Below are positions 47,012 through 64,000 of a stretch of 64,000 nt of DNA, one piece after another. This DNA is from Escherichia coli (lineage in GTDB: Bacteria; Pseudomonadota; Gammaproteobacteria; Enterobacterales; Enterobacteriaceae). Location of the stretch: NCBI RefSeq assembly GCF_045037415.1, contig NZ_CP173438.1, one strand, 5' to 3'. The stretch's first letter is position 1. Each line of letters begins with the position of its first letter. A program made the position numbers and the translations under genes. The notes below the pieces were generated by a model. The model did not search any database. It was not told the origin of the DNA and worked only from the letters and a program-made list of their open reading frames with translations.

Positions 47012-48370
47012 ATGCAAACCGTTTTAGCGAAAATCGTCGCAGACAAGGCGATTTGGGTAGAAGCCCGCAAACAGCAGCAACCGCTGGCCAGTTTTCAGAA
47101 TGAGATTCAGCCGAGCACGCGACATTTTTATGATGCGCTACAGGGTGCACGCACGGCGTTTATTCTGGAGTGCAAAAAAGCGTCGCCGTCAAAAGGCGTG
47201 ATCCGTGATGATTTCGATCCGGCACGCATTGCTGCCATTTATAAACATTACGCTTCGGCAATTTCAGTGCTGACTGATGAGAAATATTTTCAGGGGAGCT
47301 TTGATTTCCTCCCCATCGTCAGCCAAATCGCCCCGCAGCCGATTTTATGTAAAGACTTCATTATCGATCCTTACCAGATCTATCTGGCGCGCTATTACCA
47401 GGCCGATGCCTGCTTATTAATGCTTTCAGTACTGGATGACGAACAATATCGCCAGCTTGCAGCCGTCGCCCACAGTCTGGAGATGGGTGTGCTGACCGAA
47501 GTCAGTAATGAAGAGGAACTGGAGCGCGCCATTGCATTGGGGGCAAAGGTCGTTGGCATCAACAACCGCGATCTGCGCGATTTGTCGATTGATCTCAACC
47601 GTACCCGCGAGCTTGCACCGAAACTGGGGCACAACGTGACGGTAATCAGCGAATCCGGCATCAATACTTACGCTCAGGTGCGCGAGTTAAGCCACTTCGC
47701 TAACGGCTTTCTGATTGGTTCGGCGTTGATGGCCCATGACGATTTGAACGCCGCTGTGCGTCGGGTGTTGCTGGGTGAGAATAAAGTATGTGGCCTGACA
47801 CGTGGGCAAGATGCTAAAGCAGCTTATGACGCGGGCGCGATTTACGGTGGGTTGATTTTTGTTGCGACATCACCGCGTTGCGTCAACGTTGAACAGGCGC
47901 AGGAAGTGATGGCTGCGGCACCGTTGCAGTATGTTGGCGTGTTCCGCAATCACGATATTGCCGATGTGGTGGACAAAGCTAAGGTGTTATCGCTGGCGGC
48001 AGTGCAACTGCATGGTAATGAAGATCAGCTGTATATCGACACTCTGCGTGAGGCTCTGCCAGCACACGTCGCCATCTGGAAGGCTTTAAGTGTCGGTGAA
48101 ACTCTTCCCGCGCGCGATTTTCAGCACATCGATAAATATGTATTCGACAACGGTCAGGGCGGGAGCGGACAACGTTTCGACTGGTCACTATTAAATGGTC
48201 AATCGCTTGGCAACGTTCTGCTGGCGGGGGGCTTAGGCGCAGATAACTGCGTGGAAGCGGCACAAACCGGCTGCGCCGGGCTTGATTTTAATTCTGCTGT
48301 AGAGTCGCAACCGGGTATCAAAGACGCACGTCTTTTGGCCTCGGTTTTCCAGACGCTGCGCGCATATTAA
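47012..48370 (+). CDS. trpC: Indole-3-glycerol phosphate synthase / phosphoribosylanthranilate isomerase (bifunctional)
   Basis: 452-aa ORF in the trp operon position. Confidence 0.95.
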
Positions 48371-48381
48371 GGAAAGGAACA

Positions 48382-49575
48382 ATGACAACATTACTTAACC
48401 CCTATTTTGGTGAGTTTGGCGGCATGTACGTGCCACAAATCCTGATGCCCGCTCTGCGCCAGCTGGAAGAAGCTTTTGTCAGCGCGCAAAAAGATCCTGA
48501 ATTTCAGGCTCAGTTCAACGACCTGCTGAAAAACTATGCCGGGCGTCCAACCGCGCTGACCAAATGCCAGAACATTACAGCCGGGACGAACACCACGCTG
48601 TATCTGAAGCGCGAAGATTTGCTGCACGGCGGCGCGCATAAAACTAACCAGGTACTCGGTCAGGCTTTACTGGCGAAGCGGATGGGTAAAACTGAAATTA
48701 TTGCCGAAACCGGTGCCGGTCAGCATGGCGTGGCGTCGGCCCTTGCCAGCGCCCTGCTCGGCCTGAAATGCCGTATTTATATGGGTGCCAAAGACGTTGA
48801 ACGCCAGTCGCCTAACGTTTTCCGGATGCGCTTAATGGGTGCGGAAGTGATCCCGGTGCATAGCGGTTCCGCGACCCTGAAAGATGCCTGTAATGAGGCG
48901 CTACGCGACTGGTCCGGCAGTTATGAAACCGCGCACTATATGCTGGGTACCGCAGCTGGCCCGCATCCTTACCCGACCATTGTGCGTGAGTTTCAGCGGA
49001 TGATTGGCGAAGAAACGAAAGCGCAGATTCTGGAAAGAGAAGGTCGCCTGCCGGATGCCGTTATCGCCTGTGTTGGCGGTGGTTCGAATGCCATCGGTAT
49101 GTTTGCAGATTTCATCAACGAAACCGACGTCGGCCTGATTGGTGTGGAGCCTGGCGGTCACGGTATCGAAACTGGCGAGCACGGCGCACCGTTAAAACAT
49201 GGTCGCGTGGGCATCTATTTCGGTATGAAAGCGCCGATGATGCAAACCGAAGACGGGCAAATTGAAGAGTCTTACTCCATTTCTGCCGGGCTGGATTTCC
49301 CGTCCGTCGGCCCGCAACATGCGTATCTCAACAGCACTGGACGCGCTGATTACGTGTCTATTACCGACGATGAAGCCCTGGAAGCCTTTAAAACGCTTTG
49401 CCTGCATGAAGGGATCATCCCGGCGCTGGAATCCTCCCACGCCCTGGCCCATGCGCTGAAAATGATGCGCGAAAATCCGGAAAAAGAGCAGCTACTGGTG
49501 GTTAACCTTTCCGGTCGCGGCGATAAAGACATCTTCACCGTTCACGATATTTTGAAAGCACGAGGGGAAATCTGA
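48382..49575 (+). CDS. trpB: Tryptophan synthase beta chain
   Basis: 397-aa PLP enzyme (HxGxHK region). Confidence 0.95.
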
Positions 49576-50381
49576 TGGAACGCTACGAATCTCTGTTTGC
49601 CCAGTTGAAGGAGCGCAAAGAAGGCGCATTCGTTCCTTTCGTCACCCTCGGTGATCCGGGCATTGAGCAGTCGCTGAAAATTATCGATACGCTAATTGAA
49701 GCCGGTGCTGACGCGCTGGAGTTAGGCATCCCCTTCTCCGACCCACTGGCGGATGGCCCGACGATTCAAAACGCCACACTGCGTGCCTTTGCGGCGGGTG
49801 TGACCCCGGCGCAGTGCTTTGAGATGCTGGCACTGATTCGTCAAAAACATCCGACCATTCCTGTTGGCCTGCTGATGTACGCCAACCTGGTGTTTAACAA
49901 AGGCATTGATGAGTTTTACGCCCAGTGCGAGAAAGTCGGCGTCGATTCGGTGCTGGTTGCCGATGTGCCAGTTGAAGAGTCCGCGCCCTTCCGCCAGGCC
50001 GCGTTGCGTCATAATGTCGCACCTATCTTTATTTGCCCGCCGAATGCCGACGATGATTTGCTGCGCCAGATAGCCTCCTACGGTCGTGGATACACCTATT
50101 TATTGTCACGTGCGGGCGTGACCGGCGCAGAAAACCGCGCCGCGTTACCCCTCAATCATCTGGTTGCGAAGCTGAAAGAGTACAACGCTGCACCTCCATT
50201 GCAGGGATTTGGTATTTCCGCCCCTGATCAGGTAAAAGCAGCGATTGATGCAGGAGCTGCGGGCGCGATTTCTGGTTCGGCCATCGTTAAAATCATCGAG
50301 CAACATATTAATGAGCCAGAGAAAATGCTGGCGGCACTGAAAGCTTTTGTACAACCGATGAAAGCCACTACACGACGTTAA
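49575..50381 (+). CDS. trpA: Tryptophan synthase alpha chain
   Basis: 268 aa; start overlaps the trpB stop. Confidence 0.95.
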
Positions 50382-50390
50382 TTTGAGACA

Positions 50391-50416
50391 AACCGCCAGA
50401 AAACATCTGGCGGTTT
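50391..50416 (+). terminator. trp operon terminator (trp t)
   Basis: Hairpin aaccgccaga-aaacat-ctggcggttt immediately after the trpA stop. Confidence 0.85.
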
Positions 50417-50431
50417 ATTGATGGTAAAAAA

Positions 50432-50569
50432 TTAGAAGCGGTAACCTGCAGAGAACATAAATACCCACGGGTCAAGGCGTACGTTGTCAGAATAACGCCC
50501 TGCAGGCAGCACTGCGCCGTTGGATTTATATTTCACTTCGGTATCGATATCCATGTACCAGACCGACAT
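50432..50569 (-). pseudogene. ompW: ompW 3'-terminal fragment (last 45 codons, ...VRLDPWVFMFSAGYRF), candidate prophage attachment junction
   Basis: Translation ends with the characteristic OmpW C-terminus; the frame is closed by a stop immediately upstream of codon MSVW; the 5' part of the gene is absent from the window. Confidence 0.75.
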
Positions 50570-50756
50570 GTTTTAAAAAATGCAATAAGACATTGTATCT
50601 GAAAGAAAAAACAGGATTTGAGGCGCTTTTTTATACCGTTTTTCCGTGTTTTTAACTGCCTGATTTTATTGAAATCTTTTTTAGTTTTGCAGAAAGGATT
50701 TTTTGCTCGATCGCTTTAATTTTATACATTCCTGATAACGGAAATTTTTTTGCCCG

Positions 50757-50786
50757 TTGACAGTTTTTGTTCTCCGGGGCTATATT
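50757..50786 (+). promoter_or_regulatory. Candidate sigma70 promoter (TTGACA, 18-bp spacer, TATATT) upstream of the Rha gene
   Basis: Consensus-like hexamers read in the sequence; function inferred. Confidence 0.3.
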
Positions 50787-51013
50787 CCTCACACAACCGC
50801 AAAATCGGTTGTCGGGATTGGCGTCTCGGATAACATCACAACGCATAGCCGCGTTTGCGGTTTTTTTTGCGTTAAGCATTGCCACATTCGCATTATGGTG
50901 GGGCGTGCAGGGGCGGAGAAATCCGCGCCGGGTTTTGTGATGACCGGTTACGCCAACCCTGTACGTCTCACCACCTCCCTGATTGGCGTCAGAGGTGGTG
51001 ATCATCCAATTAA

Positions 51014-51586
51014 TTGGAGTCATCACATATGAATACAGCTATAACTTTTTCTAACGAGTCACCAAAAGTCTTTTTCAAAGATGGTCGCCTGGTTACCACC
51101 TCTCAAGCTGTTGCCGACTACTTCGATAAACAACATAAACACGTTTTAGCTAAGATTGACACACTCGACTGCTCTCCCGAATTTACATCAGCCAACTTTT
51201 CGGCCGATGTTCAGACTGTCGAAATTGGCAACGGCGCAGAACGTGAATCACGATGCTACCTGATCACAAAAGACGGCTTCATGTTCCTCGTAATGGGATT
51301 TACTGGCAAAAAAGCAGCCAGACTAAAAGAAGCTTACATTGAAAAATTTAACGCAATGGAAGAAGAACTCCACAAACGTCCTCCTGCAGCACAAAACTCC
51401 CCCGCCCCAAATAATGGATGCGCATTACTGATCCACTTCGATAAACACGGTCAGGTCGAGTTCACAGAAAAAGTCCCCGCCGATGCGATGGTATGCACGC
51501 TGGAACGGTTTAAATTTTATCTGGAGCAACATGGGTGGATCGTTGCCCGTAAAGAACAATTGGTGGAAAGGTTGATGCGGTTTTAA
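51014..51586 (+). CDS. Phage regulatory protein, Rha family (190 aa)
   Basis: N-terminal Rha-type motif (VTTSQAVADYFDKQHKHVLAKIDTL; LVMGFTGKKAARLKEAYIEKFNAME). Confidence 0.7.
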   Translation: MESSHMNTAITFSNESPKVFFKDGRLVTTSQAVADYFDKQHKHVLAKIDTLDCSPEFTSANFSADVQTVEIGNGAERESRCYLITKDGFMFLVMGFTGKKAARLKEAYIEKFNAMEEELHKRPPAAQNSPAPNNGCALLIHFDKHGQVEFTEKVPADAMVCTLERFKFYLEQHGWIVARKEQLVERLMRF

Positions 51587-51593
51587 TGAATGC

Positions 51594-51626
51594 AAAACCC
51601 CGGATGATCACCGGGGTTAATTTTAT
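51594..51626 (+). terminator. Rho-independent terminator downstream of the Rha gene
   Basis: Hairpin aaaaccccgg-atgatca-ccggggtt followed by AATTTTA. Confidence 0.6.
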
Positions 51627-51947
51627 CGAGCGTGATTGCCGCTAATCGCCATCGCTCTGATTGAGCGTAAATCATTCAGGTTATTCAGTTCTTCCTTCTG
51701 CTCTCGCTGACGTCAATAAATCCCATCATTGCGATCAACCTCATCCTTAACCATTGATGCGAGCAGTTCTTCCAGTTTCTGCGCTGACAGCTTTACCTGG
51801 TGATCTTCAGCATCTTCCCGGGCTATTGTGGTTCGCGCAGTGGCTGATTTTGCTGACATCACCACAGGGGGCAGACGGACCATTGAACCATGGCCTCCGG
51901 AACAAATAAGGGCAAAAATAACAACCACTATCGAAAGCTCACAAACT

Positions 51948-52085
51948 AACCGCAGCACGTTCCTGCATACGACGTGTCTGCGGCATAATCCCAATGATTA
52001 CTCCCTGACAGGATTTGCAGGCCACTCAATATCAGGTGCAGTTGATGTATCAACACGATTCAACAATACCCGATATTTATTCCAT
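51948..52085. repeat. Direct repeat copy 1 (about 140 bp): tfa 3' end plus its terminator hairpin
   Basis: Roughly 85-90 percent identical by eye to 52998-53135 (aaccgcagcacgt...ggcataatcccaatgattactccctgacag...ggccactcaatatcaggtgcagttgatgtatcaacacg). Confidence 0.8.
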
Positions 52086-52267
52086 GCCTCCAGCAACGAT
52101 CTTTCTTCCTCCGTTGCGATTTCCAGATCTACAGCATCCTGCAGTGGCGCAATATACTCACTGAATTCCTGGATGTAGAACTGTGTGGTGACGGTCTTCC
52201 AGCCATTCGGCTCCTGCTGTATCGAAGCATACCAGGCTATTTCAATATCGCTATGCTGCGGCAGCAT
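51998..52267 (-). pseudogene. Tail fibre assembly protein (Tfa) C-terminal fragment, 89 codons
   Basis: C-terminus ...[36 protein letters not shown] resembles the intact Tfa at 54952-55479; the N-terminal half is missing. Confidence 0.65.
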
Positions 52268-52323
52268 TTAACCCCTTGTAATTCATCGCCATAATTGATT
52301 TAATTCACAAATAAAACTATAAC

Positions 52324-52992
52324 ATGGTGAAATCAATGAAAAAAAACACAGATGATGGGGCTAAAATTTACACACCACTTACCCTAAAGCTTTATGACTG
52401 GTGGGTTTTGGGAGTATCAAATCGGCTTGCATGGGGATGTCCTACAAAGGAACACCTTCTTCCACACTTTCTGGAACATGTAGGTAACAACCATCTGGAT
52501 ATTGGTGTTGGAACTGGGTTTTACCTTACTCACGTACCTGAGAGTAGTCTGATATCTTTAATGGATTTGAACGAAGCTAGCCTGAACGCGGCATCTACAA
52601 GGGCTGGGGAATCAAAAATTAAACATAAAATTAGCCATGATGTTTTTGAACCTTATCCCGCGGCGTTACATGGTCAATTTGATTCCATTTCCATGTTTTA
52701 CCTTCTTCACTGCCTGCCTGGAAATATATCTACAAAAAGCTGTGTAATACGCAATGCGGCGCAGGCCTTAACTGACGATGGAACTCTATACGGAGCCACA
52801 ATTCTTGGCGATGGAGTTGTGCACAATAGCTTCGGTCAAAAACTGATGCGCATTTACAATCAGAAAGGCATCTTTTCAAACACAAAAGATTCCGAAGAAG
52901 GCTTAACACATATACTCTCAGAGCATTTCGAGAATGTTAAAACCAAGGTTCAAGGTACTGTAGTAATGTTTTCCGCTTCAGGGAAAAAATAG
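52324..52992 (+). CDS. Class I SAM-dependent methyltransferase (222 aa), prophage moron
   Basis: Motif I LDIGVGTGFY; AT-rich coding sequence; flanked by the diverged tfa 3' repeats. Confidence 0.7.
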   Translation: MVKSMKKNTDDGAKIYTPLTLKLYDWWVLGVSNRLAWGCPTKEHLLPHFLEHVGNNHLDIGVGTGFYLTHVPESSLISLMDLNEASLNAASTRAGESKIKHKISHDVFEPYPAALHGQFDSISMFYLLHCLPGNISTKSCVIRNAAQALTDDGTLYGATILGDGVVHNSFGQKLMRIYNQKGIFSNTKDSEEGLTHILSEHFENVKTKVQGTVVMFSASGKK

Positions 52993-52997
52993 CATCC

Positions 52998-53135
52998 AAC
53001 CGCAGCACGTTCTTGCTTAAGACGTGCTGCGGCATAATCCCAATGATTACTCCCTGACAGGGTTCGTAGGCCACTCAATATCAGGTGCAGTTGATGTATC
53101 AACACGGTTCAGTAACACCCGATACTTTTTCTAGG
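52998..53135. repeat. Direct repeat copy 2: tfa 3' remnant plus hairpin (ccgcagcacgt...acgtgctgcgg)
   Basis: Paralogous to 51948-52085; the hairpin lies immediately after the methyltransferase stop. Confidence 0.8.
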
Positions 53136-53139
53136 CTTC

Positions 53140-53373
53140 CACCACCAGCACGACAAGATGCCGCATACAGTGAACCAGTCAGTCCAGTTTTCAGACAACC
53201 AGTGCGTCACCTTTTTGAAGGCGCTTTAAAGCACGTTTTAATCCAGGTCGGCCTGTCCTTGTTCCGCTTAATTTATCTTCAAATATTTGTTCATATCCTG
53301 CACAAACAAGAGCGTTTCGTTGCAGATCTGTATTCTGGTCATTTGTTGATACCCTTACATAGCCAATCAGCAC
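53140..53373 (-). pseudogene. pin: DNA invertase Pin/Gin/Hin family, truncated and interrupted
   Basis: N-terminal serine recombinase signature (V)LIGYVRVSTNDQNTDLQRNAL...LKRLQKGDALVV, then in-frame stop, degenerate sequence and fusion to the tfa remnant about 75 codons in. Confidence 0.8.
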
Positions 53374-53427
53374 GCTGAATCTCCCGTCCAAAAGCACAAA
53401 TCATGCCATGCAGGCCAGAAACCGCCA

Positions 53428-53453
53428 TTATCTAAAACCTCGGTTTACGAGAA
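53428..53453. repeat. Invertase crossover site (pix/gix-like, TTATCTAAAACCTCGGTTTACGAGAA)
   Basis: 26-bp site matching the Gin/Pin crossover consensus, inverted relative to the site at 56509-56534. Confidence 0.85.
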
Positions 53454-54386
53454 CTCGGCACAAGCGGGGAGAAAATACCGTTACTCAGTACAGCGAATAC
53501 CTGGACTAATCGACAAACATTCAGCGGTGGCCTTTCTGGTGAACTATCCGGCAATGCTTCTACAGCTGCAAAATTAAAAACTGCCAGGAAAATAAGCAAT
53601 GTGGCTTTTGATGGTTCCTCCGATATCACATTAAAAGCAAGTCATGTTGGTGCGTTTGCCTTAGGGAAAACAGGAAGCACCGTTGCGAATGATAAAGCAG
53701 TTGGATGGAACTGGAGTAGCGGAGCCTATAACGCAACTATTAGTGGTGCATCAACGTTAATTATTCATTTTTATATGGGAGAAGGAAGTTGTCCTGCAGC
53801 TCAGTTTCGGATTAATTATAAAAATGGCGGTATTTTTTATCGTTCAGCCCGTGATGGTTATGGTTTTGAAGCCGACTGGTCCGAATTTTACACCACCACC
53901 AGAAAGCCTTCAGCAGGAGATGTTGGTGCACTGCCGTTATCTGGTGGTCAACTGAATGGTGCACTGGGTATCGGAACATCCAGTGCTCTTGGCGGTAATT
54001 CGATTGTATTGGGTGATAATGACACGGGCTTTAAACAAAATGGCGATGGTAATCTGGATGTTTATGCTAATAACGTCCATGTTATGCGCTTTGTCTCCGG
54101 AAGCATTCAAAGTAATAAAACCATAAATATTACAGGGCGTGTTAACCCCTCGGATTACGGTAACTTTGATTCCCGTTATGTGAAAGATGTTCGACTTGGT
54201 TCACAGCAATATTATGGAGTGAACAACTGGCAAACATGGAATTTCCAGTGCCCTTCAGGTCATGTATTGTCTGGTATTAATGTTCAGGATACAGGGTCTA
54301 ACTCTGCCGATAATATAGCGGGCGTTTATTACAGACCCGTTCAAAAGTATATAAATGGCACCTGGTATAATGTAGCGAGCGTTTAA
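53441..54386 (+). CDS. Silent alternative tail-fibre C-terminal cassette (receptor-binding domain), in frame from the crossover site
   Basis: Frame open from the crossover site ([61 protein letters not shown]...); shares ALGGNSIxLGDNDTGxKQxGDG and QKYIxGxWYNV motifs with the expressed Stf C-terminus; ORF track lists 53601..54386. Confidence 0.7.
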
Positions 54387-54387
54387 T

Positions 54388-54921
54388 ATGATGCACTTAA
54401 AGAACATAAAAGCGGGTAATGCTAAAACACTGGAACAGTATGAGTTAACAAAGAAACACGGAGTTATCTGGCTTTACTCTGAGGACGGAAAAAACTGGTA
54501 TGAGGAAGTGAAAAACTTTCAGCCAGACACCATAAAGATTGTTTACGATGAAAATAATATTATTGTTGCCATAACCAAAGATGCCTCCACACTTAACCCT
54601 GAAGGTTATAGCGTCGTTGAGATTCCTGATATTACCGCCAACCGGCGTGCTGACGACTCAGGTAAATGGATGTTTAAAGATGGCGCAGTCATTAAACGTG
54701 TATATACCGAAGAAGAGTTGCGCCTACAGACGGAAAACCAGAAAAAAATATTATTACAGCAGGCCAGAGAAAAAACGCAGTTCTGGCAAACACAGCTTAC
54801 TTTGGGGATTATCACTGATTCAGACAGACAGCAACTGATGAACTGGATGCGATACGTGCAACAGGTTGAGACAACTGATACCTCGGTTCTTCCTGTAACA
54901 TTCCCGGAACCACCAGAATAA
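54388..54921 (+). CDS. Tail fibre assembly protein Tfa (cognate to the silent cassette)
   Basis: 177 aa paralogous to the minus-strand Tfa (MxHLKNIxAGNxKT..EQYxLTKK.GVIWLY.EDGKNWY). Confidence 0.8.
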
Positions 54922-54922
54922 G

Positions 54923-54947
54923 AAAAGGCCCGTACGGGCCTTAATTT
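54923..54947. terminator. Bidirectional terminator at the centre of the invertible segment
   Basis: Hairpin aaaaggcccgtacgggcctt between the convergent tfa genes. Confidence 0.6.
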
Positions 54948-54951
54948 GTTG

Positions 54952-55479
54952 TTATTCTGGTTTCTGTGGCCATTCAGGCTTTGCAGTATCCACACGGCTG
55001 ACCATAACGCTGTAGCGTTCCCATGATTCCAGTCGTGTGCGTTCCTCATCAGTTGCCATATTCAGTCTGACAGCACGTTCCAGCGGTTGAATCACAGACT
55101 CCGCTTCGGAAAGCAAAGCGGCTTTTTGTAACTCTGCCTGCTGTTGCAGTTCCTGTTTTGTATATTCCCGCTTTACTACTTTACCATCCAGAAACTTCCA
55201 GTTTCCCGAGATATCGGCGCGACGGTTGGCTGTTATATTCGGTAACTCAACAACACTTAACCCGTCAGGGTTAAGTGTTGATACGTCTTTCTCAATACAA
55301 CGAATAATCCCCTTCTGGTCATAAGCTATTTTTAAAGTATCATCCTGAAAGTTTTTTAATTCGTCATACCAGTTTTTACCGTCTTCTGTATATAGCCAGA
55401 TAACGCCAGCTTTTTTCGTAAGCTGATACTGCTCAATGGTTTTGGGGTTTCCGGCGGTAATATTTTTCAGATGTTGCAT
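54952..55479 (-). CDS. Tail fibre assembly protein Tfa (expressed orientation)
   Basis: 175-aa ORF directly downstream of stf. Confidence 0.85.
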
Positions 55480-55494
55480 ATATTCTCCTGATGG

Positions 55495-58401
55495 CTATGC
55501 CTGTTCAACGTTATACCAGTTACCAGAAATGTATTTTTGTAGTGGTCGTGACACCATCCAGTCATCTCCATCAACCTCACCAATAATTTGCAATCCTGTT
55601 GTCACATGACCATTACCTGGTTCGCAAAGTCCTCCGCGATATAATGTGTCAGAACGTCTGCCTCCCAGACGCACATTTCTGATAAAAGAACTATTCAGGT
55701 AATCATTTAAGTTTGACCCCCAGCACCCACCAAATATATTTCCATCGGTGTTATAACGGACGCCACCCGCAATAAGAGCACCCGGTGAAATAAAGGATTT
55801 ATCGTTCGGGTTAAACTGCCATAAAGCATCATTACCGCCATCGCCACGCATATGAATACATGGAACCGGAAATCCATACTGTTCTGTCAGTAAATACCCA
55901 AAGCTGACCGCGCCGGGATAGCCCTGTCCATTGCGAATGGACAAGCCCTTAACTATCGGCACGTAAAGACCACCAGGAGTGGGATTCCAGGCAAACTGCG
56001 TCTGAACAAAAGGCGCGGTGGCATTATTCAACTGGTCTGCAAATGCGCCACTTCCATCAGGAATTATTCCCTGATGAATATATGCAACCCGCTTATAAAA
56101 ATCAGCAGATGCGGGTTGAAGCCCAAATGCCAGTTGTCCATTTGAATAGAATAAAAGGACACCGTCGCCGCCCTGTTTAATACCAGTGTCGTTATCTCCG
56201 AGAGTAATGGAATTACCGCCCAGTGCGTTATCTGTACCAAGCGCCAGCCCACCATCAATTTTGGCCCCGTGGCTGACAGATATAGCACCTGTTCTCAGAT
56301 TTATAGCGAATGGCCTTAATGGGCCGATATCACCGTTTTCGCCTTGTCCTTCAGCCGTCGGAATGAAATGAAGAAAATCTTCTGAACGACGGAAAATAAG
56401 ACCGAAGGCATCATTGAAAATTCGCAGCGCATTCACCGTGCCAATTTTCAGTTCTCCGGTCATTTTATCGCCGGAACGCTGAACGGCGTTACCAGCCTTG
56501 TTTACCGTTTCCTGTAAACCGAGGTATTCGATAACGGCGGCAACGGTCGATTTCGCAAGAATATCCCGCCCAACTTTTGTCAGGGTTGCCAGACTGGCAA
56601 CATCATTCCCCGTAAAATACGGAAACCTGTCTGCCGCAGTAGCAAGCCCGGCCAGCGCCGTCAGGGTGGCATCTTTCGGTTGCTTACCCGCAAGCGCGCT
56701 AGTCATGGTGGTCGCAAAATTCGGGTCGTTGCCCAACGCCGCAGCCAGCTCGTTCAGCGTATTCAGTGCGTCAGGCGACGAGTCCACGAGGGCAGCGATC
56801 GCAGCCATAACATAAGCCGTGCTTGCGATTTGGGTATTATTCGTTCCCTGTCGCGCAGTTGGTGTTGTTGGCGTTCCGGTCAGTGCAGGACTATTTAAGG
56901 GCGCTTTCTTGTTCGTTTCACCCATTACCGCCTTAACCGCTTTTGGCGTTGCCGCCAGTGACTCGGAAGTGCTGTTGGTCGCACTGCTGAGCTGTACTAT
57001 CCCCTTTTTCGTCGTGCTCGCATCCTCAAGCGCCACGGCGGATGCAATATCCTCTGCCCGTTTTGCCGCTGTCTCGGCGCGCGTTGCCGCGGATTCCGCC
57101 GTACTTTTGCTCTGAGCTGCCGCCGTCGCACTGCCAGCTGCCTCTGTCGCCTTCGTGGATGCCGTCGTGGCGCTGCCCTTTGCTGCTGACGCCTGTCTGG
57201 TCGCCTCATCTTTTGAAGCAGACGCAGATGATGCCGATGACGCCGCTGAACTGGCTGACGATGCGGCTGCCGCCTTAGAGGAAGCAGCATTGTCTGCTGA
57301 AGTCTTTGCATTTGTTTCAGAGGTTTTTGCTGCAGAAGCAGACCTCGCTGCTGCAGTGGCTTGCTCAGTGGCTTTGCCAGCCTTCGTTGTGGCTGTTGAA
57401 GCGGATGATGCGGCGCTTTCTGCCGATTTTCCGGCGGCGGTGGCACTGGCTGAGGCCTGCCCGGCACTTGTTGACGCGGCACTGGCAGATAATGCAGCCG
57501 CTGTTTTTGAACCTGCCGCAGCTGAGGCGCTCTGTCCCGCTGCTGTTTCAGAAGACTTAGCGTTCGTCTCGGACGTTTTTGCCGCCTTCGCGGAATTTCC
57601 TGCCGCCGTTGCCGAGGAAGCTGCACTACTGGCACTTGATGATGCATTCGTTTCTGAAGATTTCGCTGCCTCTTTTGAGGCCGCCGCACCCCGTGCCGAG
57701 GTGGCAGCTTCTGACGCCTTCGTGGTCGCTGTGGATGCAGAAGTGGCTGCCGATTTTTGTGATGCTGCGGCATTCGTTTCTGACGTTTTCGCGGCACTGG
57801 CGCTGGTAGCTGCCGCGCTTTTTGATGACTCTGCAGCAGCAGCACTTTTTGCTGCTTCACGGGCCTTTGTCGATGCCGTTCCTGCGCTGGAAGACGCTGA
57901 CTGAGCCGACGACGCGGCCTGTCCGGCTGACGTGCTGGCGGCACGTGATGAGGCTGCAGCATCGGTTGCATGAGTTGCCGCCTCGCTGGCTGATGCACTG
58001 GCATCGCTGGCTGATTTTTTCGCGGCTGCCGTATTCTGTGCAACCGCGGAGGCGTTACGTGACACCTCTTCTACCATCTGCTCAAAGCGGCGCAGTGCCT
58101 CCGGTCGTACATCATCCTCCGTCATGGCACCGAGAAAATCATTCAGCGTACCTGGTCTGGAACCTTCATAGACGGTAATGGTCCCGGCATGTGAAGGCGG
58201 AAAACCTTCAACCAGCAGGGTGACGCTGTACTGACCATGCTCAACATCCATGCTGTAACGTCCGGCTTCATCCGGATTTTCAGAGGCCACCGTGTTCACC
58301 ACCACCGTGCTGCTGGTTCGTCTGGCCTTCAGCACAATGGTGCAGTTCTGTACTGGTTTTCCTGTGCCATCTTTAAGCACGCCAGAAATTTTTACTGTCA
58401 T
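55495..58401 (-). CDS. stf: Side tail fibre protein Stf (968 aa): lambda-like constant N-terminal part fused at the crossover site to variable C-terminal cassette A
   Basis: N-terminus MTVKISGVLKDGTGKPVQNCTIVLKARR... recognised as lambda Stf-like; long Ala/Ser/Thr-rich repeat region; crossover site encodes IEYLGLQET. Confidence 0.9.
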   Translation of the reverse strand: MTVKISGVLKDGTGKPVQNCTIVLKARRTSSTVVVNTVASENPDEAGRYSMDVEHGQYSVTLLVEGFPPSHAGTITVYEGSRPGTLNDFLGAMTEDDVRPEALRRFEQMVEEVSRNASAVAQNTAAAKKSASDASASASEAATHATDAAASSRAASTSAGQAASSAQSASSSAGTASTKAREAAKSAAAAESSKSAAATSASAAKTSETNAAASQKSAATSASTATTKASEAATSARGAAASKEAAKSSETNASSSASSAASSATAAGNSAKAAKTSETNAKSSETAAGQSASAAAGSKTAAALSASAASTSAGQASASATAAGKSAESAASSASTATTKAGKATEQATAAARSASAAKTSETNAKTSADNAASSKAAAASSASSAASSASSASASKDEATRQASAAKGSATTASTKATEAAGSATAAAQSKSTAESAATRAETAAKRAEDIASAVALEDASTTKKGIVQLSSATNSTSESLAATPKAVKAVMGETNKKAPLNSPALTGTPTTPTARQGTNNTQIASTAYVMAAIAALVDSSPDALNTLNELAAALGNDPNFATTMTSALAGKQPKDATLTALAGLATAADRFPYFTGNDVASLATLTKVGRDILAKSTVAAVIEYLGLQETVNKAGNAVQRSGDKMTGELKIGTVNALRIFNDAFGLIFRRSEDFLHFIPTAEGQGENGDIGPLRPFAINLRTGAISVSHGAKIDGGLALGTDNALGGNSITLGDNDTGIKQGGDGVLLFYSNGQLAFGLQPASADFYKRVAYIHQGIIPDGSGAFADQLNNATAPFVQTQFAWNPTPGGLYVPIVKGLSIRNGQGYPGAVSFGYLLTEQYGFPVPCIHMRGDGGNDALWQFNPNDKSFISPGALIAGGVRYNTDGNIFGGCWGSNLNDYLNSSFIRNVRLGGRRSDTLYRGGLCEPGNGHVTTGLQIIGEVDGDDWMVSRPLQKYISGNWYNVEQA
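56509..56534. repeat. Invertase crossover site inside stf (TTCCTGTAAACCGAGGTATTCGATAA)
   Basis: Reverse complement matches the site at 53428-53453 at 22 of 26 positions; Gin/Pin consensus. Confidence 0.85.
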
Positions 58402-58553
58402 ACTTTTCCACCAATAAAAAAAGCCCGCAGCAGTGACGCCACGGGCTTCAGGACAGTGTAACTTTACGTTTCCTCAAACGCAGTTCACCCCATAAGGTGG
58501 ATGAACCTGCGTATCATAACAATATTTACAGAAGATAAATCGGCGTCTGTTGT

Positions 58554-58775
58554 CAGAAACGGTATCCGATACCAACAATAAATGCATCCGTTCGCCAGTC
58601 GCCACTACCGGAACCTTCATAAGCAAGGTCAATGGTCACGGATTCGGTCGGGTTAAACTGCACGCCAGCCCCCCACGCCAGAGACGTGTTGCTGTGGCGA
58701 CCGTCATCACTTCCGGTCAGCACATCGTGCGTTTTCCCCTTGTTGTCAGTTACGCGGAGATAATCCCCGGAGAAA
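58554..58775 (-). pseudogene. lom: lom 3' fragment (Lom/Ail/OmpX-family outer membrane protein, C-terminal part SGDYLRVTDNKGKTHD...GYRF)
   Basis: Translation recognised as the lambda Lom C-terminus; separated from its N-terminal part by the IS element. Confidence 0.85.
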
Positions 58776-58862
58776 GTTGCGTATTACCGTGAAGGAGATC
58801 GGTGAGTAACATCGATGGAGATCGGTTCGTGTCACTTTCACAGAACCGTTTTTAAATTACCT

Positions 58863-59612
58863 TCACTGATCTCCTTCGGTCAACGGAGATTGTATTTTCC
58901 GCATTGATTCTCCTTTAAGTTCGATCTTGATACTGCCATGAACCAGTCGATCTAGGATGGCATCCGCATGTGTGGAGTCTCCGATCATTTTGTACCAGTT
59001 TTCCACCGGCAACTGGCTCACTACGATGATTGAGCCTCGTTGGTACATCAGATCCACTATTTCCAGCAGGTCGCTACGCTGTTCTGATGAGAGAGGTTCC
59101 AGCCCCCAGTCATCCAGAAGCAGCAGATCGCTATTATTCAGCCTGGTCAAAAGTTTGCTGTATCTTCCATCAGCATGCCCCTGATAGCACTGTTCCATCA
59201 GCGCTTTAAGGCGATAATAGTAGACCTTGTATCCCTGTCGGCAGGCATTATGACCAAGTGCACATGCCAGGAACGTTTTACCGCTGCCGGTGGCCCCGGT
59301 CAGTAAAATATTTTGTTTCAGGGTTAACCAGTTTCCCTGACTGAGTGAACGGATGAGGGCCCTGTCCAGCCCTCTATTGTTACGATAATCCAGCTTTGAT
59401 AACTCAGCATTAAGTCTGAACCGTGCATGTTTGATCAGACGCTCTGCCTTCCTGTTTTCACGGCAGGTTAGTTCTTCTGCTGTCAGTAATGACAGGCGTT
59501 CTTCGAAGCCCAGCTCCTGGTATGTGCCCGGTTGAGCAAGTTGCTTTTTAAGCGCATCACGGAAGCCGGTGAGTTTAAGTGCGGTCAGTTGTTCGTAAAG
59601 ATGATTCATCAT
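58863..59612 (-). CDS. istB: IS21-family helper protein IstB (AAA+ ATPase)
   Basis: Walker A GATGSGKTF, Walker B LLLDDWG; 249 aa. Confidence 0.85.
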   Translation of the reverse strand: MMNHLYEQLTALKLTGFRDALKKQLAQPGTYQELGFEERLSLLTAEELTCRENRKAERLIKHARFRLNAELSKLDYRNNRGLDRALIRSLSQGNWLTLKQNILLTGATGSGKTFLACALGHNACRQGYKVYYYRLKALMEQCYQGHADGRYSKLLTRLNNSDLLLLDDWGLEPLSSEQRSDLLEIVDLMYQRGSIIVVSQLPVENWYKMIGDSTHADAILDRLVHGSIKIELKGESMRKIQSPLTEGDQ

Positions 59613-59623
59613 TGGATCCCGTA

Positions 59624-61165
59624 TCAGTGGTAATACTCACTGCCGCGTACGTTTTCGTGTTCCATCGTGGATAACAGATCTGGTTTTGGATCCTGAACAG
59701 GTTGTTTATCCAGACCTTTTTCCAGGATCGATTTAATACCTGACAGACGCCATACCTTTGTTTTCAGAGCTCTTGCACATGCTGCATTAAGTCTGGCTTT
59801 ACTGTATTTTTTATGAAGGTTCAGGAGTCCAAGGCAGAAGCGATAGCTTTGTTCCGGATGTGGACGAGAGTTCAGTATATGAAGCACATAACTATGAGTT
59901 TCACTGCCTATGTGCCCCGCCCATTCCAGAAGACGCTCTGGCGTCCAGGTGGCATGCTGTCGATGAGCTTCAGGCATGTGCTCGTTGCGGGTACTGTAGC
60001 CATAAGTACGCTTGCGCGGGTGCACAGCAACCTCCTGCCCCTGATTGAAGAGTCTTACCAGTTCTCCGGAGATCCATGCTTCCAGTTGCTGGCCTAACAG
60101 CGAACATGGAACCGAGTAGTAATGTTTGTCGATTTCCACGTGGTAATCGGCATGAACTCTGACTTTCTTCACCAGGGTGTAACTGTAACTGGCTTCAGGA
60201 AGAGGCTTCAGTGCGGGTTTATCAAGCTGGATGAAGAGTTCTGCACGTGAATAACCCAACTTCTGCATTATTTTGTTATTCAGTCTTTCCAGCAACTCCC
60301 GAATGCGCTGATTAAGCGATGCAAGGCTGTAGAAGATCTCATGCCTGATTCGGGCCATGATCCAGCGTTCAACAACCTGAACGCCAACTTCAGCTTTGGC
60401 TTTATCTTTCGGTTTACGTGGCCGCGCAGGCAAAACTGCGACATTATAATGCTCAAGCATCTGCTGGTAGGTAGGGTTAACGTCAGGATCATACTTACAT
60501 GCCCTGGATGTGGCGCTTTTCAGATTGTCCGGAACAACAAGTTCAGGAACGCCACCCAACCACTGGAAGCAGCGAACATGACTCATCACCCAGTCTTCAA
60601 GCTGCTGAGACCAGGTGGCCTCTGCCCATGTGTAACTTGATGCCCCGAGAACAGCTACGATGACCTGAGCAGTTCTTATTTCTCCGGTCTCAGGGTCGGT
60701 AACGCCAACGGTAGGTCCACAGTAATCAACGAAAAGTTTTTCGCCAGCTTTATGTACCTGACGCATTGATGGTGAAGTGGTTTTGAGCCATTCACGGTAC
60801 ATCCGGCAGTAATGGTTATAGCTGTAAAAACCGCCTGGATTACGCTCACAGTATTCTTCCCAGAGTAGCTGCAGCGTCACGCATTTATTACGCAGTTCCC
60901 GGTGTACTGTAGCCCAGTCAGGCAGAGAGTGCTTCTTCATCTTAACCTGGGTCTGAAGGAACGCATGTTTTAGTTTTGTATCATCCCATCCTGTAGGTAA
61001 GGGCCACTGCTTTATGCCAAGTTGAGCCGCCCGATTAGCATATCTGGATACAACGGAAGGGGAGATTGCAAGACTACGACCAATTTGTCGATGGCTGAGT
61101 CCAACACCGTATTTAAGCCTAAGAATTTCTTTAAGTTTTCTCATAGAAATTGGAACTGTTGGCAT
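59624..61165 (-). CDS. istA: IS21-family transposase IstA
   Basis: N-terminal helix-turn-helix and DDE-type integrase core upstream of istB; the 513-aa ORF is longer than typical IstA, so the true start may be internal. Confidence 0.75.
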   Translation of the reverse strand: MPTVPISMRKLKEILRLKYGVGLSHRQIGRSLAISPSVVSRYANRAAQLGIKQWPLPTGWDDTKLKHAFLQTQVKMKKHSLPDWATVHRELRNKCVTLQLLWEEYCERNPGGFYSYNHYCRMYREWLKTTSPSMRQVHKAGEKLFVDYCGPTVGVTDPETGEIRTAQVIVAVLGASSYTWAEATWSQQLEDWVMSHVRCFQWLGGVPELVVPDNLKSATSRACKYDPDVNPTYQQMLEHYNVAVLPARPRKPKDKAKAEVGVQVVERWIMARIRHEIFYSLASLNQRIRELLERLNNKIMQKLGYSRAELFIQLDKPALKPLPEASYSYTLVKKVRVHADYHVEIDKHYYSVPCSLLGQQLEAWISGELVRLFNQGQEVAVHPRKRTYGYSTRNEHMPEAHRQHATWTPERLLEWAGHIGSETHSYVLHILNSRPHPEQSYRFCLGLLNLHKKYSKARLNAACARALKTKVWRLSGIKSILEKGLDKQPVQDPKPDLLSTMEHENVRGSEYYH

Positions 61166-61357
61166 AGGTATCCTTTACCGGAATGGCAAAAGATACAGAT
61201 CAACACACCTGTGAAGTTCCAATAACATTGATGGAGATCACTGAATAACAAAATGAGTCAAAAGTGATCTCCATCGATGTTATTCAGCGATCTGTTCAAA
61301 TGTTATTACCCGATCTCGATGGAAGTTATTGAGTGATCTCCTTTCATGAAAATACGC

Positions 61358-61738
61358 AAAAGTCGACACACGGCTGTAAGCCACACCCGCCATCGCATAC
61401 GCGCTGAACCATTCATTCACGCGTACAGACGGCCCCGCCATCACGCTGAACCAGCGGTTACGCACGGAATCTTCATGCCAGCGGGTATCGCTGTAGCGCG
61501 TTTTTTGCTCATCCTCAGCATTGGCATAACTGAAGGACGTAATCAGCCCCAGCGCGTCCGTAAACTCATAACGGTATTTCACGTTAATCCCGTTCAGATC
61601 ATCACTACCGGGAACGTTCGTCGAGGCATGGAGATACCCCGCGCTCAGCGTGGACTGATGTTCTGCTGCACTCGCTGGCGTAGCAGCGGCGACCTGCCAG
61701 ACTACTGCGGACAAAATAACAGCACATAATTTACGCAT
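61358..61738 (-). pseudogene. lom: lom 5' fragment (signal peptide and first beta-strands, MRKLCAVILSAVV...AYSRVSTF)
   Basis: Recognised as the lambda Lom N-terminus; the ORF track extends it into the IS end (61280..61738). Confidence 0.85.
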
Positions 61739-61765
61739 AATTACCTCTCGCTTTTCTGCAATAAA

Positions 61766-61790
61766 AAAGGCGCCATTTCTGGCGCCCGTA
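61766..61790 (-). terminator. Hairpin with T-tract downstream of J
   Basis: ggcgcca-tttc-tggcgcc followed by TTTTTTATT on the minus strand. Confidence 0.5.
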
Positions 61791-61805
61791 TCTGGGTTAT
61801 AAAAT

Positions 61806-64000
61806 TCAGCTAATCGTGATGCCTGCAGTGGCTTTCTTCATCACCACAACCAGCAAATCGCTGATACTTGCTGTGGGATACCAGTTATTTACCAGCCATG
61901 CTGACACCGAAAACTCCAGTGTCATGTGACCGTGACCGGCAGGCATATCAATAACACCACTGTAAATCAGCGTATTATCCAGCGCGGTACGGTTATAAAT
62001 TTCAGCACCGTTTTTCCGCACTATCAGACGGCATGAGGAGTAAATATCAGTATGCTCTTTCTCATGTTTAGCGCCGCTGAATGCCACCGCCGGAATAACA
62101 ATCTGCCGGTCAAACGGCTGATCGTCATAAACCCTGACGGTAATGGTTCCTGATGGCCACCGCTCCGGTGCACGGGAGTCCCGGGGGAAAGCTTTGCCCA
62201 CTGTTTTAACGAGATCGCCTTCAATCTGGTTCGCGGACAATTTTCCCAGAACCCGACAGTTCTCGTTAATCGTGACGTTGTTGAGCGTCCCGGAGTTCGC
62301 ATTCACGTTACCGCTGATATCGGCATTTTTCGCCGTCAGCCGCCCGTCCGGTGTCAGGGAAAATGCCGGAGGATTACCGCCGCTGGTAATGGTGGGAGCC
62401 GTCAGATATTTCAGGAACACTTCATTCATAAATATCTGATCGCCCTGACCAACAAACATCGGCTTTGTGTTGCCATTCGCAGGATTAATCATCGCAATCC
62501 TGTCTGCCGCCAGCAGCACCTGACTCTGCATTCCTGCTGGCGTATTCTCAATACCGGCACCGATACCCGCAATATAAAGGCGTCCGTCCTGCATCTGCTG
62601 CAGTTTCACGGCCCACATGCTGTTCAGGTTATTATTTGTATCAACCTGAACTTTCTGTATCTGCTGGATTGCCGCACTCTGATTTTCCAGTTTTTTATTG
62701 ACGGTCTGCGTGATTTCATTGCTGACATTCGTAATGGACGTCCTGATTTCAGCCAGGTCCGGCGCAAGCTGACCGTTATCAATCTGCGTCCACAGCTCCT
62801 GGGCCAGATGTGTTTTCCCGATTTCTCCTTTGAAAAAATCCAGGTAACCTTCCGCATCATCGCTCGCCCGACCGACAGCCTCCACGAATGCCGATTTGCC
62901 AACAGTATTCACACTGCGGATATAAAAATAATAATCATGGCCCGGTTTGATATTGATACTGGCAGCTATCCAGTACAGCGCCGAGCCAAGATAGCGGGCT
63001 GCGGTTTCAACCTGCCTGATATCCGCAATCCGCTTTTCCGAGAACCAGAACTCAAACTGTACCGTCGGGTCATAAACGGCAAGATGTGGCGTTGCGGTTA
63101 TCTGAAAATAGCCCGGCGTCAGCTCAATCCGCGACGGTGCTGCCGGTGCGGCAATCCGGAAGGTGGTGGTGGCAGGTTCACCCTGCTGGCCATAGCTGTT
63201 TATCGCCCGCACCGTCAGGGTGTATTCCCCGAGCGGCAGGCCGCTGAAACGGTGCTCCGTGTCTGCGGTGATGGCGGTGGTCACCAGTCTGGCATCCGTT
63301 CCCTTACCACTGGTCAGGCGCAGACTGAAGCGCACACCCTTCACCACCCGCGGCGTGTCCCATTTCGCCTGCGCCAGATACTGGCCGTCAGCTGCGCTCA
63401 CCTCCACCGTCAGGTGCTGCACTGCCGGTGGGATGACGCTGTTCAGGGAACCTGACTGCGGCTCAAAGCGGGCACCGTTATCCACGATGGCTTCTTTTTC
63501 CGGTACGTGCTGCACCGCCGTGATGGCAAAGGTGCCGTCCGTGTTTTCCCGGATGGAGACACAGCGGAACAGGCGACGGCGCAGTGACGGCAGGGAGAGT
63601 CCCCACACCCCGTATGTCTCCACACCATCAGGCAGGGTACTGACCTGTATCCGGTCCGGCGCGGGGTGTGCGGTGATGTCCACACTCACCGGCTTACCGC
63701 TGCCGTTAATCAGGTTCACCGCCGATGTACCTGTCTCCGGCAGGGTAACCTCACGGTCCAGCGTCAGGGTGCGGGTGGCAGCATCAATGGACAGGACACG
63801 TCCGCCGGTCAGGGTCCCGGCATAGTCATTATCACAGATTTCAATAATGTCACCGGGTGTGTGCCGCAGCCCCTGAACCCGAGCGTGAAATCCACCGTCT
63901 GCGTTTCCAGCAGTTCGGTCTTTATCACCCACAGTCCGGCACGGTGGGCCTGACCGCGGCTGGTACAGCCGAACGCGTCCATCTTCAGCAGGTTGCGTCC
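61806..64000 (-). CDS. J: Tail tip host-specificity protein J, 3' portion (gene continues beyond the window end)
   Basis: Long ORF upstream of lom in lambda gene order, resembling the central and C-terminal regions of lambda J; frame still open at the window edge. Confidence 0.8.

Follow-up and report, generated by a model that had tools for sequence, protein, structure and literature searches.

The stretch of DNA analyzed here, 64,000 nucleotides of an Escherichia coli genome (contig NZ_CP173438.1; hereafter, the window), carries a Gin/Pin-type switch of the side tail fiber gene stf, in which two alternative C-terminal cassettes, each with its own chaperone gene (tfa), lie in a 3.1-kb segment bracketed by inverted crossover sites. 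The locus is the published tail fiber switch of prophage Phi4 of E. coli O25b:H4 sequence type 131 (O25b:H4-ST131) strain EC958, named by Forde et al. 2014 (PLoS One 9:e104400; PMC4134206). An original prediction, made from the sequence, held that the switch is frozen because the adjacent pin-type invertase gene is a pseudogene. We find instead that both orientations of the segment occur in nature, and the Phi4 module of ST131 very probably has lost its own recombinase and still switches by means of an invertase encoded elsewhere. The truncated invertase and the explanation in trans were already known; our additions, a count of the orientations across genomes and a predicted enhancer retained in the invertase stump, are modest. 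The available text of PMC4134206 contained no mention of an enhancer in the stump and no survey of orientations across genomes.

Identity of the locus with prophage Phi4

Window positions 48102 to 62700 are 100% identical to EC958, and positions 51900 to 56700, which correspond to EC958 1484618 to 1489418, are also 100% identical to many other ST131 chromosomes. The sole difference from EC958 over 16.8 kb is a homopolymer at 48101 in trpCF (AAA in the window, AA in EC958). Table 3 of PMC4134206 places the sites Phi4_5prime and Phi4_3prime at 1484784..1484809 and c1487865..1487890 of EC958, which map exactly to window positions 56509 to 56534 and 53428 to 53453, respectively. According to the same source, the invertible segment measures 3106 bp, and the invertase, EC958_1582, is severely truncated; in the window, the distance from the outer edge of one site to the outer edge of the other is 3107 bp. 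The window and the published Phi4 share locus, DNA, annotated gene context, sites, segment size, and truncated invertase, with no sequence difference. The sites and the segment are as follows.

53428-53453: crossover site 1, invertase-proximal; the plus strand reads TTATCTAAAACCTCGGTTTACGAGAA; central dinucleotide TC at 53440-53441
56509-56534: crossover site 2, within the stf reading frame at codons IEYLGLQE; the reverse complement reads TTATCGAATACCTCGGTTTACAGGAA; central dinucleotide GA at 56521-56522
53440-56522: invertible segment, between the central dinucleotides; the in silico inversion of exactly this interval is matched in complete genomes

Both 26-bp sites had been located correctly in the original prediction. 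Site 1 and the reverse complement of site 2 agree at 22 of 26 positions, and a repeat finder lengthened the inverted repeat to 32 nt with 84% identity (53422 to 53453 and 56509 to 56540). Common to the two sites is an identical 12-bp core, ACCTCGGTTTAC, which is the longest unbroken identity between the two repeat arms and on either side of which the sites diverge. The gix site of phage D108 served as an independent probe; with up to three mismatches allowed, it matched within the window at these two sites only (two mismatches each), and 100 shuffles yielded 0 matches, with 0 chance matches expected.

Both orientations occur among complete genomes

Next, 5,426 complete E. coli genomes were surveyed with a 4.8-kb query, counting matches over at least 80% of its length. 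This threshold separates the two orientations, because the invertible part makes up 64% of the query and only same-strand pieces were joined. The window orientation was present in 233 complete genomes, and the predicted inverted sequence was present in 138. All inverted genomes among the matches listed (25 of 25) agreed with the prediction at 100.0% over an unbroken stretch of 4801 nt, with the bit score of a perfect match. Since the sites differ on either side of the core, these exact matches to the predicted hybrid sites place the exchange inside it; the crossover is confined to the 12-bp identical core, as expected if the central dinucleotide is the place of a staggered cut. The two orientation classes carry the same dead invertase, and their flanks are 100% identical.

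These counts bear directly on the reading that the switch is frozen, with the segment locked in the cassette A orientation by a dead invertase and cassette B left as a fossil. Such a reading draws on an invertase beyond repair, which keeps 79 of 193 codons, has two stops, and is devoid of its DNA-binding domain, and on a tblastn search for any further invertase, which found none within the 64-kb window. However, 138 inverted genomes stand beside 233 in the window orientation, all with the same dead gene, and cassette B and its tfa are fully open. Moreover, both orientations were present within one EC958 culture: in PacBio reads of a single DNA preparation, the alternative orientation of the Phi4 segment assembled as a 12.7-kb contig of its own (PMC4134206). 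Together with the same-patient isolates described below, which differ in orientation, this leaves the frozen switch very unlikely as a general account and refuted for EC958 and similar ST131 strains; only in a host that lacks every invertase of the Gin/Pin/Cin family would it be tenable.

Another alternative to ongoing switching is that each orientation is an old allele inherited on its own, or that the pattern arises from assembly artifacts. In its favor, the survey mostly sees one consensus orientation per assembly, and one record, NZ_CP082831.1, has both orientations at two places, perhaps through an assembly problem. In this 5.45-Mb genome the locus occurs twice, once per orientation, at 4.76 Mb and 2.24 Mb, which could be a real duplication or an artifact in which a contig of the alternative allele was merged into the chromosome. 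Against it, the mixed orientations of EC958 come from a single DNA preparation, for which adapter and hairpin artifacts were controlled (PMC4134206), and a 2026 preprint on other ST131 isolates used polymerase chain reaction (PCR) and XmnI digestion to confirm inversions in their P88-like and BP-4795-like prophages. We take the BP-4795-like prophage to be Phi4; among the three prophages compared in that preprint, an invertase is named only for the P88-like and phiE255-like ones.

The orientation also differs among close relatives. The segment is inverted in isolate U12A and stands in the window orientation in U13A, U14A, and U15A, in all four at the same coordinates. According to a 2019 paper on recurrent urinary tract infection, no more than 26 core single-nucleotide polymorphisms separate the urine isolates U12A to U15A, all from one patient, and both U12A and U15A fall into the dominant cluster of that patient; a search of that paper for mention of a Phi4 inversion found none. 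With opposite orientations inside one cluster of one patient, and with the identical flanks of the two classes, old alleles or artifacts are a highly improbable explanation.

Finally, the segment might be inverted by RecA-dependent homologous recombination between the short inverted repeats. The sites do lie within an imperfect inverted repeat of 32 to 36 bp, but efficient RecA recombination in E. coli needs roughly 25 bp of identity, and the uninterrupted identity of the arms does not exceed the 12-bp core. Furthermore, the 25 inverted genomes among the matches listed all have the product of an exchange inside this core with its central dinucleotide, the sites are bona fide gix-type sites, and a high frequency within single cultures (PMC4134206) is typical of invertases. 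RecA is, on these grounds, scarcely credible as the agent of inversion.

Inversion exchanges the C-terminal part of Stf

The fiber and chaperone genes are listed below. Families were assigned with PHROGs profiles, which were informative where NCBIfam was not; an NCBIfam scan of the fiber, chaperone, and methyltransferase proteins gave nothing useful and, for the invertase stump, only weak, sub-threshold matches to serine recombinases.

56535-58401, minus strand: constant N-terminal part of Stf, residues 1 to about 622, including Ala/Ser-rich repeats (phrog_8713 and phrog_454, tail fiber)
55495-56508, minus strand: cassette A, the Stf C-terminus now expressed, 337 codons (open reading frame [ORF]; reading across the site)
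54952-55479, minus strand: cassette A chaperone gene (tfaA), 175 aa, downstream of the expressed Stf (phrog_136, E = 7e-77; RefSeq annotation)
53454-54386, plus strand: cassette B, the silent alternative Stf C-terminus, 310 codons, in frame with site 1 (phrog_454, tail fiber, E = 1e-115)
54388-54921, plus strand: cassette B chaperone gene (tfaB), 177 aa (phrog_136, E = 2e-70; RefSeq tail fiber assembly protein)
54925-54942: hairpin AAGGCCCGTACGGGCCTT between the convergent tfa genes, with a terminator-like score on both strands

The expressed Stf is a minus-strand ORF of 968 aa (55495 to 58401) that reads AAVIEYLGLQETVNK across site 2, including the codons IEYLGLQET at which the original prediction had fused it to cassette A, with a tfa next to it. 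In silico inversion of 53440 to 56522 gave an open 941-aa Stf with no stop, which is the same as the 968-aa protein through residue 629 (...IEYLGL) and then continues with RELGTSGEK... into cassette B. The prediction of an in-frame cassette B on the opposite strand with a tfa of its own, to which inversion would give a seamless fusion, agrees with this product; there is no frame disruption in cassette B, and cassette and tfa are both complete reading frames. Likewise, the Mu G-segment architecture ascribed to the 3.1-kb segment is seen in its two cassettes, two convergent chaperone genes, and bracketing sites.

Cassette A has 99.7% amino acid identity to the fibers of the Mu-like Yersinia phages vB_YpM_3 and vB_YpM_23, which were isolated on Yersinia pestis EV76. 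Cassette B has about 82% amino acid identity to the fiber tips of P2-like Peduovirus. A receptor was sought by similarity for both cassettes, and the records of the matching phages gave none. We infer that the two cassettes confer different receptor specificities.

Two features of the annotation concern this region. In the EC958 record, RefSeq (Prokaryotic Genome Annotation Pipeline, PGAP) presents the Stf region at window positions 55479 to 58401 as pseudogene fragments, with no coding sequence (CDS) over cassette A; given the intact 968-aa ORF, this is an artifact typical of invertible fiber genes. At 56997 to 58043, long ORFs of 348 and 249 aa in another frame or on the opposite strand overlap the Ala/Ser-rich stf repeats, and these are composition artifacts, not genes.

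The invertase stump and its predicted enhancer

The region next to site 1 holds the following features.

53145-53373, minus strand: remnant of a gin/pin-type serine invertase, about 77 to 79 codons (Gin alignment; phrog_8275 and phrog_125, DNA invertase)
53027-53144, minus strand: tfa 3' end fused to the invertase stump, a second copy of 51978-52095 (direct repeat, 118 nt, 89% identity)
53284-53355, minus strand: homologue of the cis-acting recombinational (Fis) enhancer (aligned with the P1 cin enhancer annotation)

The stump translation aligns to residues 2 to 79 of the 193 residues of Gin (PDB 4M6F). TGA stops at 53191 to 53193 (codon 61) and 53179 to 53181 (codon 65) replace W61 and R65 of the invertase, and the E-helix and the helix-turn-helix DNA-binding domain are missing. 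The pin pseudogene fused to a tfa remnant had been recognized rightly in the original prediction, but it has two in-frame stops where one had been counted. RefSeq annotates the fused tfa 3' end as a partial tail fiber assembly protein, and its translation copies the tfa C-terminus. At the DNA level, CDS nucleotides 1 to 190 of the stump are 96% identical to the intact invertase of Phi1, a P2-like prophage of EC958, and 94% identical to D108 gin. Past nucleotide 190 this similarity collapses (53145 to 53183, with 20 of 40 nt differing), although a weak protein alignment extends up to residue 79; either an origin in another invertase allele or faster decay could explain the last 13 codons.

The Mu enhancer reportedly lies inside the invertase gene, to go by the title of a 1985 paper by Kahmann et al. 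In the GenBank record of phage P1, an enhancer is annotated at nucleotides 19 to 90 of the cin CDS. In the corresponding stretch of the stump, 2 of 72 nt are different from those of D108 gin and of the Phi1 invertase. Cores that match the degenerate Fis consensus, which we take to be KNNYRNNWNNYRNNM, lie at CDS nucleotides 23 to 37 and 71 to 85, that is, at window positions 53337 to 53351 and 53289 to 53303. The two predicted cores are 48 bp apart, in the same register in all six invertase genes compared, and the center of the proximal one is about 97 bp from the crossover point. For hin, the Fis-bound enhancer is reported to be a 65-bp element, usually about 100 bp from one site. Substitutions number 2 in the 72-nt enhancer stretch and 6 to 8 in the next 100 nt, which are too few for conclusions about selection. 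The surviving part of the invertase gene thus appears, by its sequence, to include the part that is needed in cis.

The proposed mechanism follows from this arrangement. A serine DNA invertase encoded elsewhere in the chromosome, for which the 199-aa enzyme of Phi1 is the leading candidate, would bind both 26-bp sites, cut at the central TC/GA dinucleotide, and invert the 3.1 kb between the sites, which would swap the last 337 residues of Stf and tfaA for 310 different residues and tfaB. The stump would supply the Fis enhancer at a distance of about 97 bp from site 1; since this is the normal geometry of an invertasome, only the protein would have to come from elsewhere. Gin, Cin, Pin, and Hin substitute for one another in trans, and because of this interchangeability an enzyme supplied in trans would be sufficient if the cis elements are intact.

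Candidate donors of the invertase

The P2-like prophage Phi1 of EC958 encodes an intact recombinase of 199 aa, to which Gin structures were matched at E = 3e-100 over residues 1 to 183. The caveat of the original prediction that another invertase might act in trans is where the evidence points. The crossover sites of Phi1, TTATTTAAAACCTCGGTTTACGAGAA and TTATCGAATACCTCGGTTTACGAGAA, are one to two mismatches from those of Phi4. Window positions 53183 to 54707, which run from the 5' end of the invertase gene through the site and cassette B into the beginning of tfaB, are 96.3% identical to the Phi1 region, and cassette B itself matches the silent Phi1 cassette at 96% DNA identity. At the other end of the segment, the Stf constant region beside site 2 (56514 to 57026) is 92% identical to the Phi1 fiber gene by its crossover site. 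In PMC4134206, the Phi1 invertase was proposed to invert Phi4 in trans, the sites being nearly identical. We would go one step further only tentatively, as a possibility somewhat short of even: the stump may have been kept because it holds the Fis enhancer, which would make the Phi4 segment a satellite switch that uses the recombinase of an unrelated, co-resident P2-like prophage.

Several points weigh against a switch operated in trans in the manner proposed. The enhancer function of the stump is a prediction from sequence alone. U12A has, at the Phi1 position, an intact 199-aa invertase of a different allele (87% amino acid identity to the Phi1 enzyme), and its P2-like prophage there has a different, shorter fiber segment, in which a ACCTCGGTTTA-type site was sought and none was found. 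Because U12A has this other allele and yet the Phi4 orientation differs between U12A and U15A, the donor invertase may differ between ST131 strains. In addition, the window covers only 64 kb of its genome, so that an intact invertase in this particular strain is presumed and not directly seen, and the insertion of ISEc12 in lom, a gene upstream of stf, raises the question of whether Phi4 is viable as a phage.

Relation to known invertible segments

The layout of the locus is shared with the G segment of phages Mu and D108, which runs from the S constant part through a site, Sv-U, the convergent U'-S'v, and a second site to gin. In D108, the genes are of near-equal size (an 894-nt silent cassette and chaperone genes of 534 and 528 nt), the region from the site to the 5' part of gin is 94% DNA-identical to the window with the Fis cores in the same register, and rho-independent terminators are annotated on both strands between U and U', at the place equivalent to the hairpin of the window. 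Mu and D108 differ in that gin is intact there and a stump here, and in that the fiber here is the Stf of a lambdoid prophage and not the Mu fiber. The segment as the Mu/D108 G segment itself was rejected, with cassettes only about 70 to 81% DNA-identical and the stretch from the site to the gin 5' end alone at the higher value.

The P segment of e14 in E. coli K-12, with pin, is a Gin-family switch in the stf/tfa region of a lambdoid, defective prophage, and it differs from the locus here in that its pin is intact. The C segment of P1 and P7, with cin, follows the same logic, with an enhancer annotated within the first 90 nt of cin; it differs in that its segment is larger, the 5' region of its invertase gene is only about 70% DNA-identical, and cin, relative to the fiber gene, is on the opposite side of the segment. 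The serine invertase adjoining the Phi4 segment is a 79-codon stump with stops; because it is nonfunctional, the locus relies on an enzyme in trans, and among the tail fiber inversion systems of the Gin/Pin/Cin type it is best regarded as an orphan, one that lacks an adjacent functional invertase.

Neighboring genes

In RefSeq, the gene order is trpA, a 3' fragment of ompW, ash and Rha regulators, tail fiber debris, the methyltransferase gene, the invertase stump, the invertible segment, Stf, lom split by ISEc12, and gpJ. The ompW 3' fragment (50432 to 50569) directly follows trpA; the lambdoid prophage whose right end forms the locus is inserted in ompW, next to trpA. As regards the homopolymer in trpCF, RefSeq marks the EC958 gene as frameshifted and the ORF of the window (47012 to 48370) is intact; a sequencing error left in the EC958 record probably accounts for the difference. 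The lom gene (Ail/Lom family) is split by the IS21-family insertion sequence ISEc12 (58553 to 61738, with istB at 58863 to 59612 and istA at 59624 to 61165).

A gene for a class I SAM-dependent methyltransferase (52324 to 52992, plus strand; phrog_2132, function unknown) lies between two direct repeats of about 150 bp. These are tfa 3' ends (51948 to 52095 and 52998 to 53144) that are 89 to 90% identical, and the second is the copy fused to the invertase stump. Because of this fusion, the event that imported or duplicated the methyltransferase cargo probably also truncated the invertase.

Implications

For annotation and assembly, long-read assemblies acquire spurious contigs or duplications where orientations are mixed (PMC4134206); beyond such housekeeping, the finding matters little. 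The two cassettes would provide alternative host ranges if Phi4 still forms particles or if its fibers serve another element. Should the stump indeed have been kept for its enhancer in a satellite switch, one enzyme would set the tail fiber phases of two different prophages per cell, and loss or gain of Phi1 would lock or unlock Phi4. How freely the segment flips is evident from the ratio of 233 to 138 among ST131 genomes. Overall, the Phi4 locus clearly illustrates, in nature, that a switch need not be dead because its recombinase gene is, when related invertases share the chromosome.

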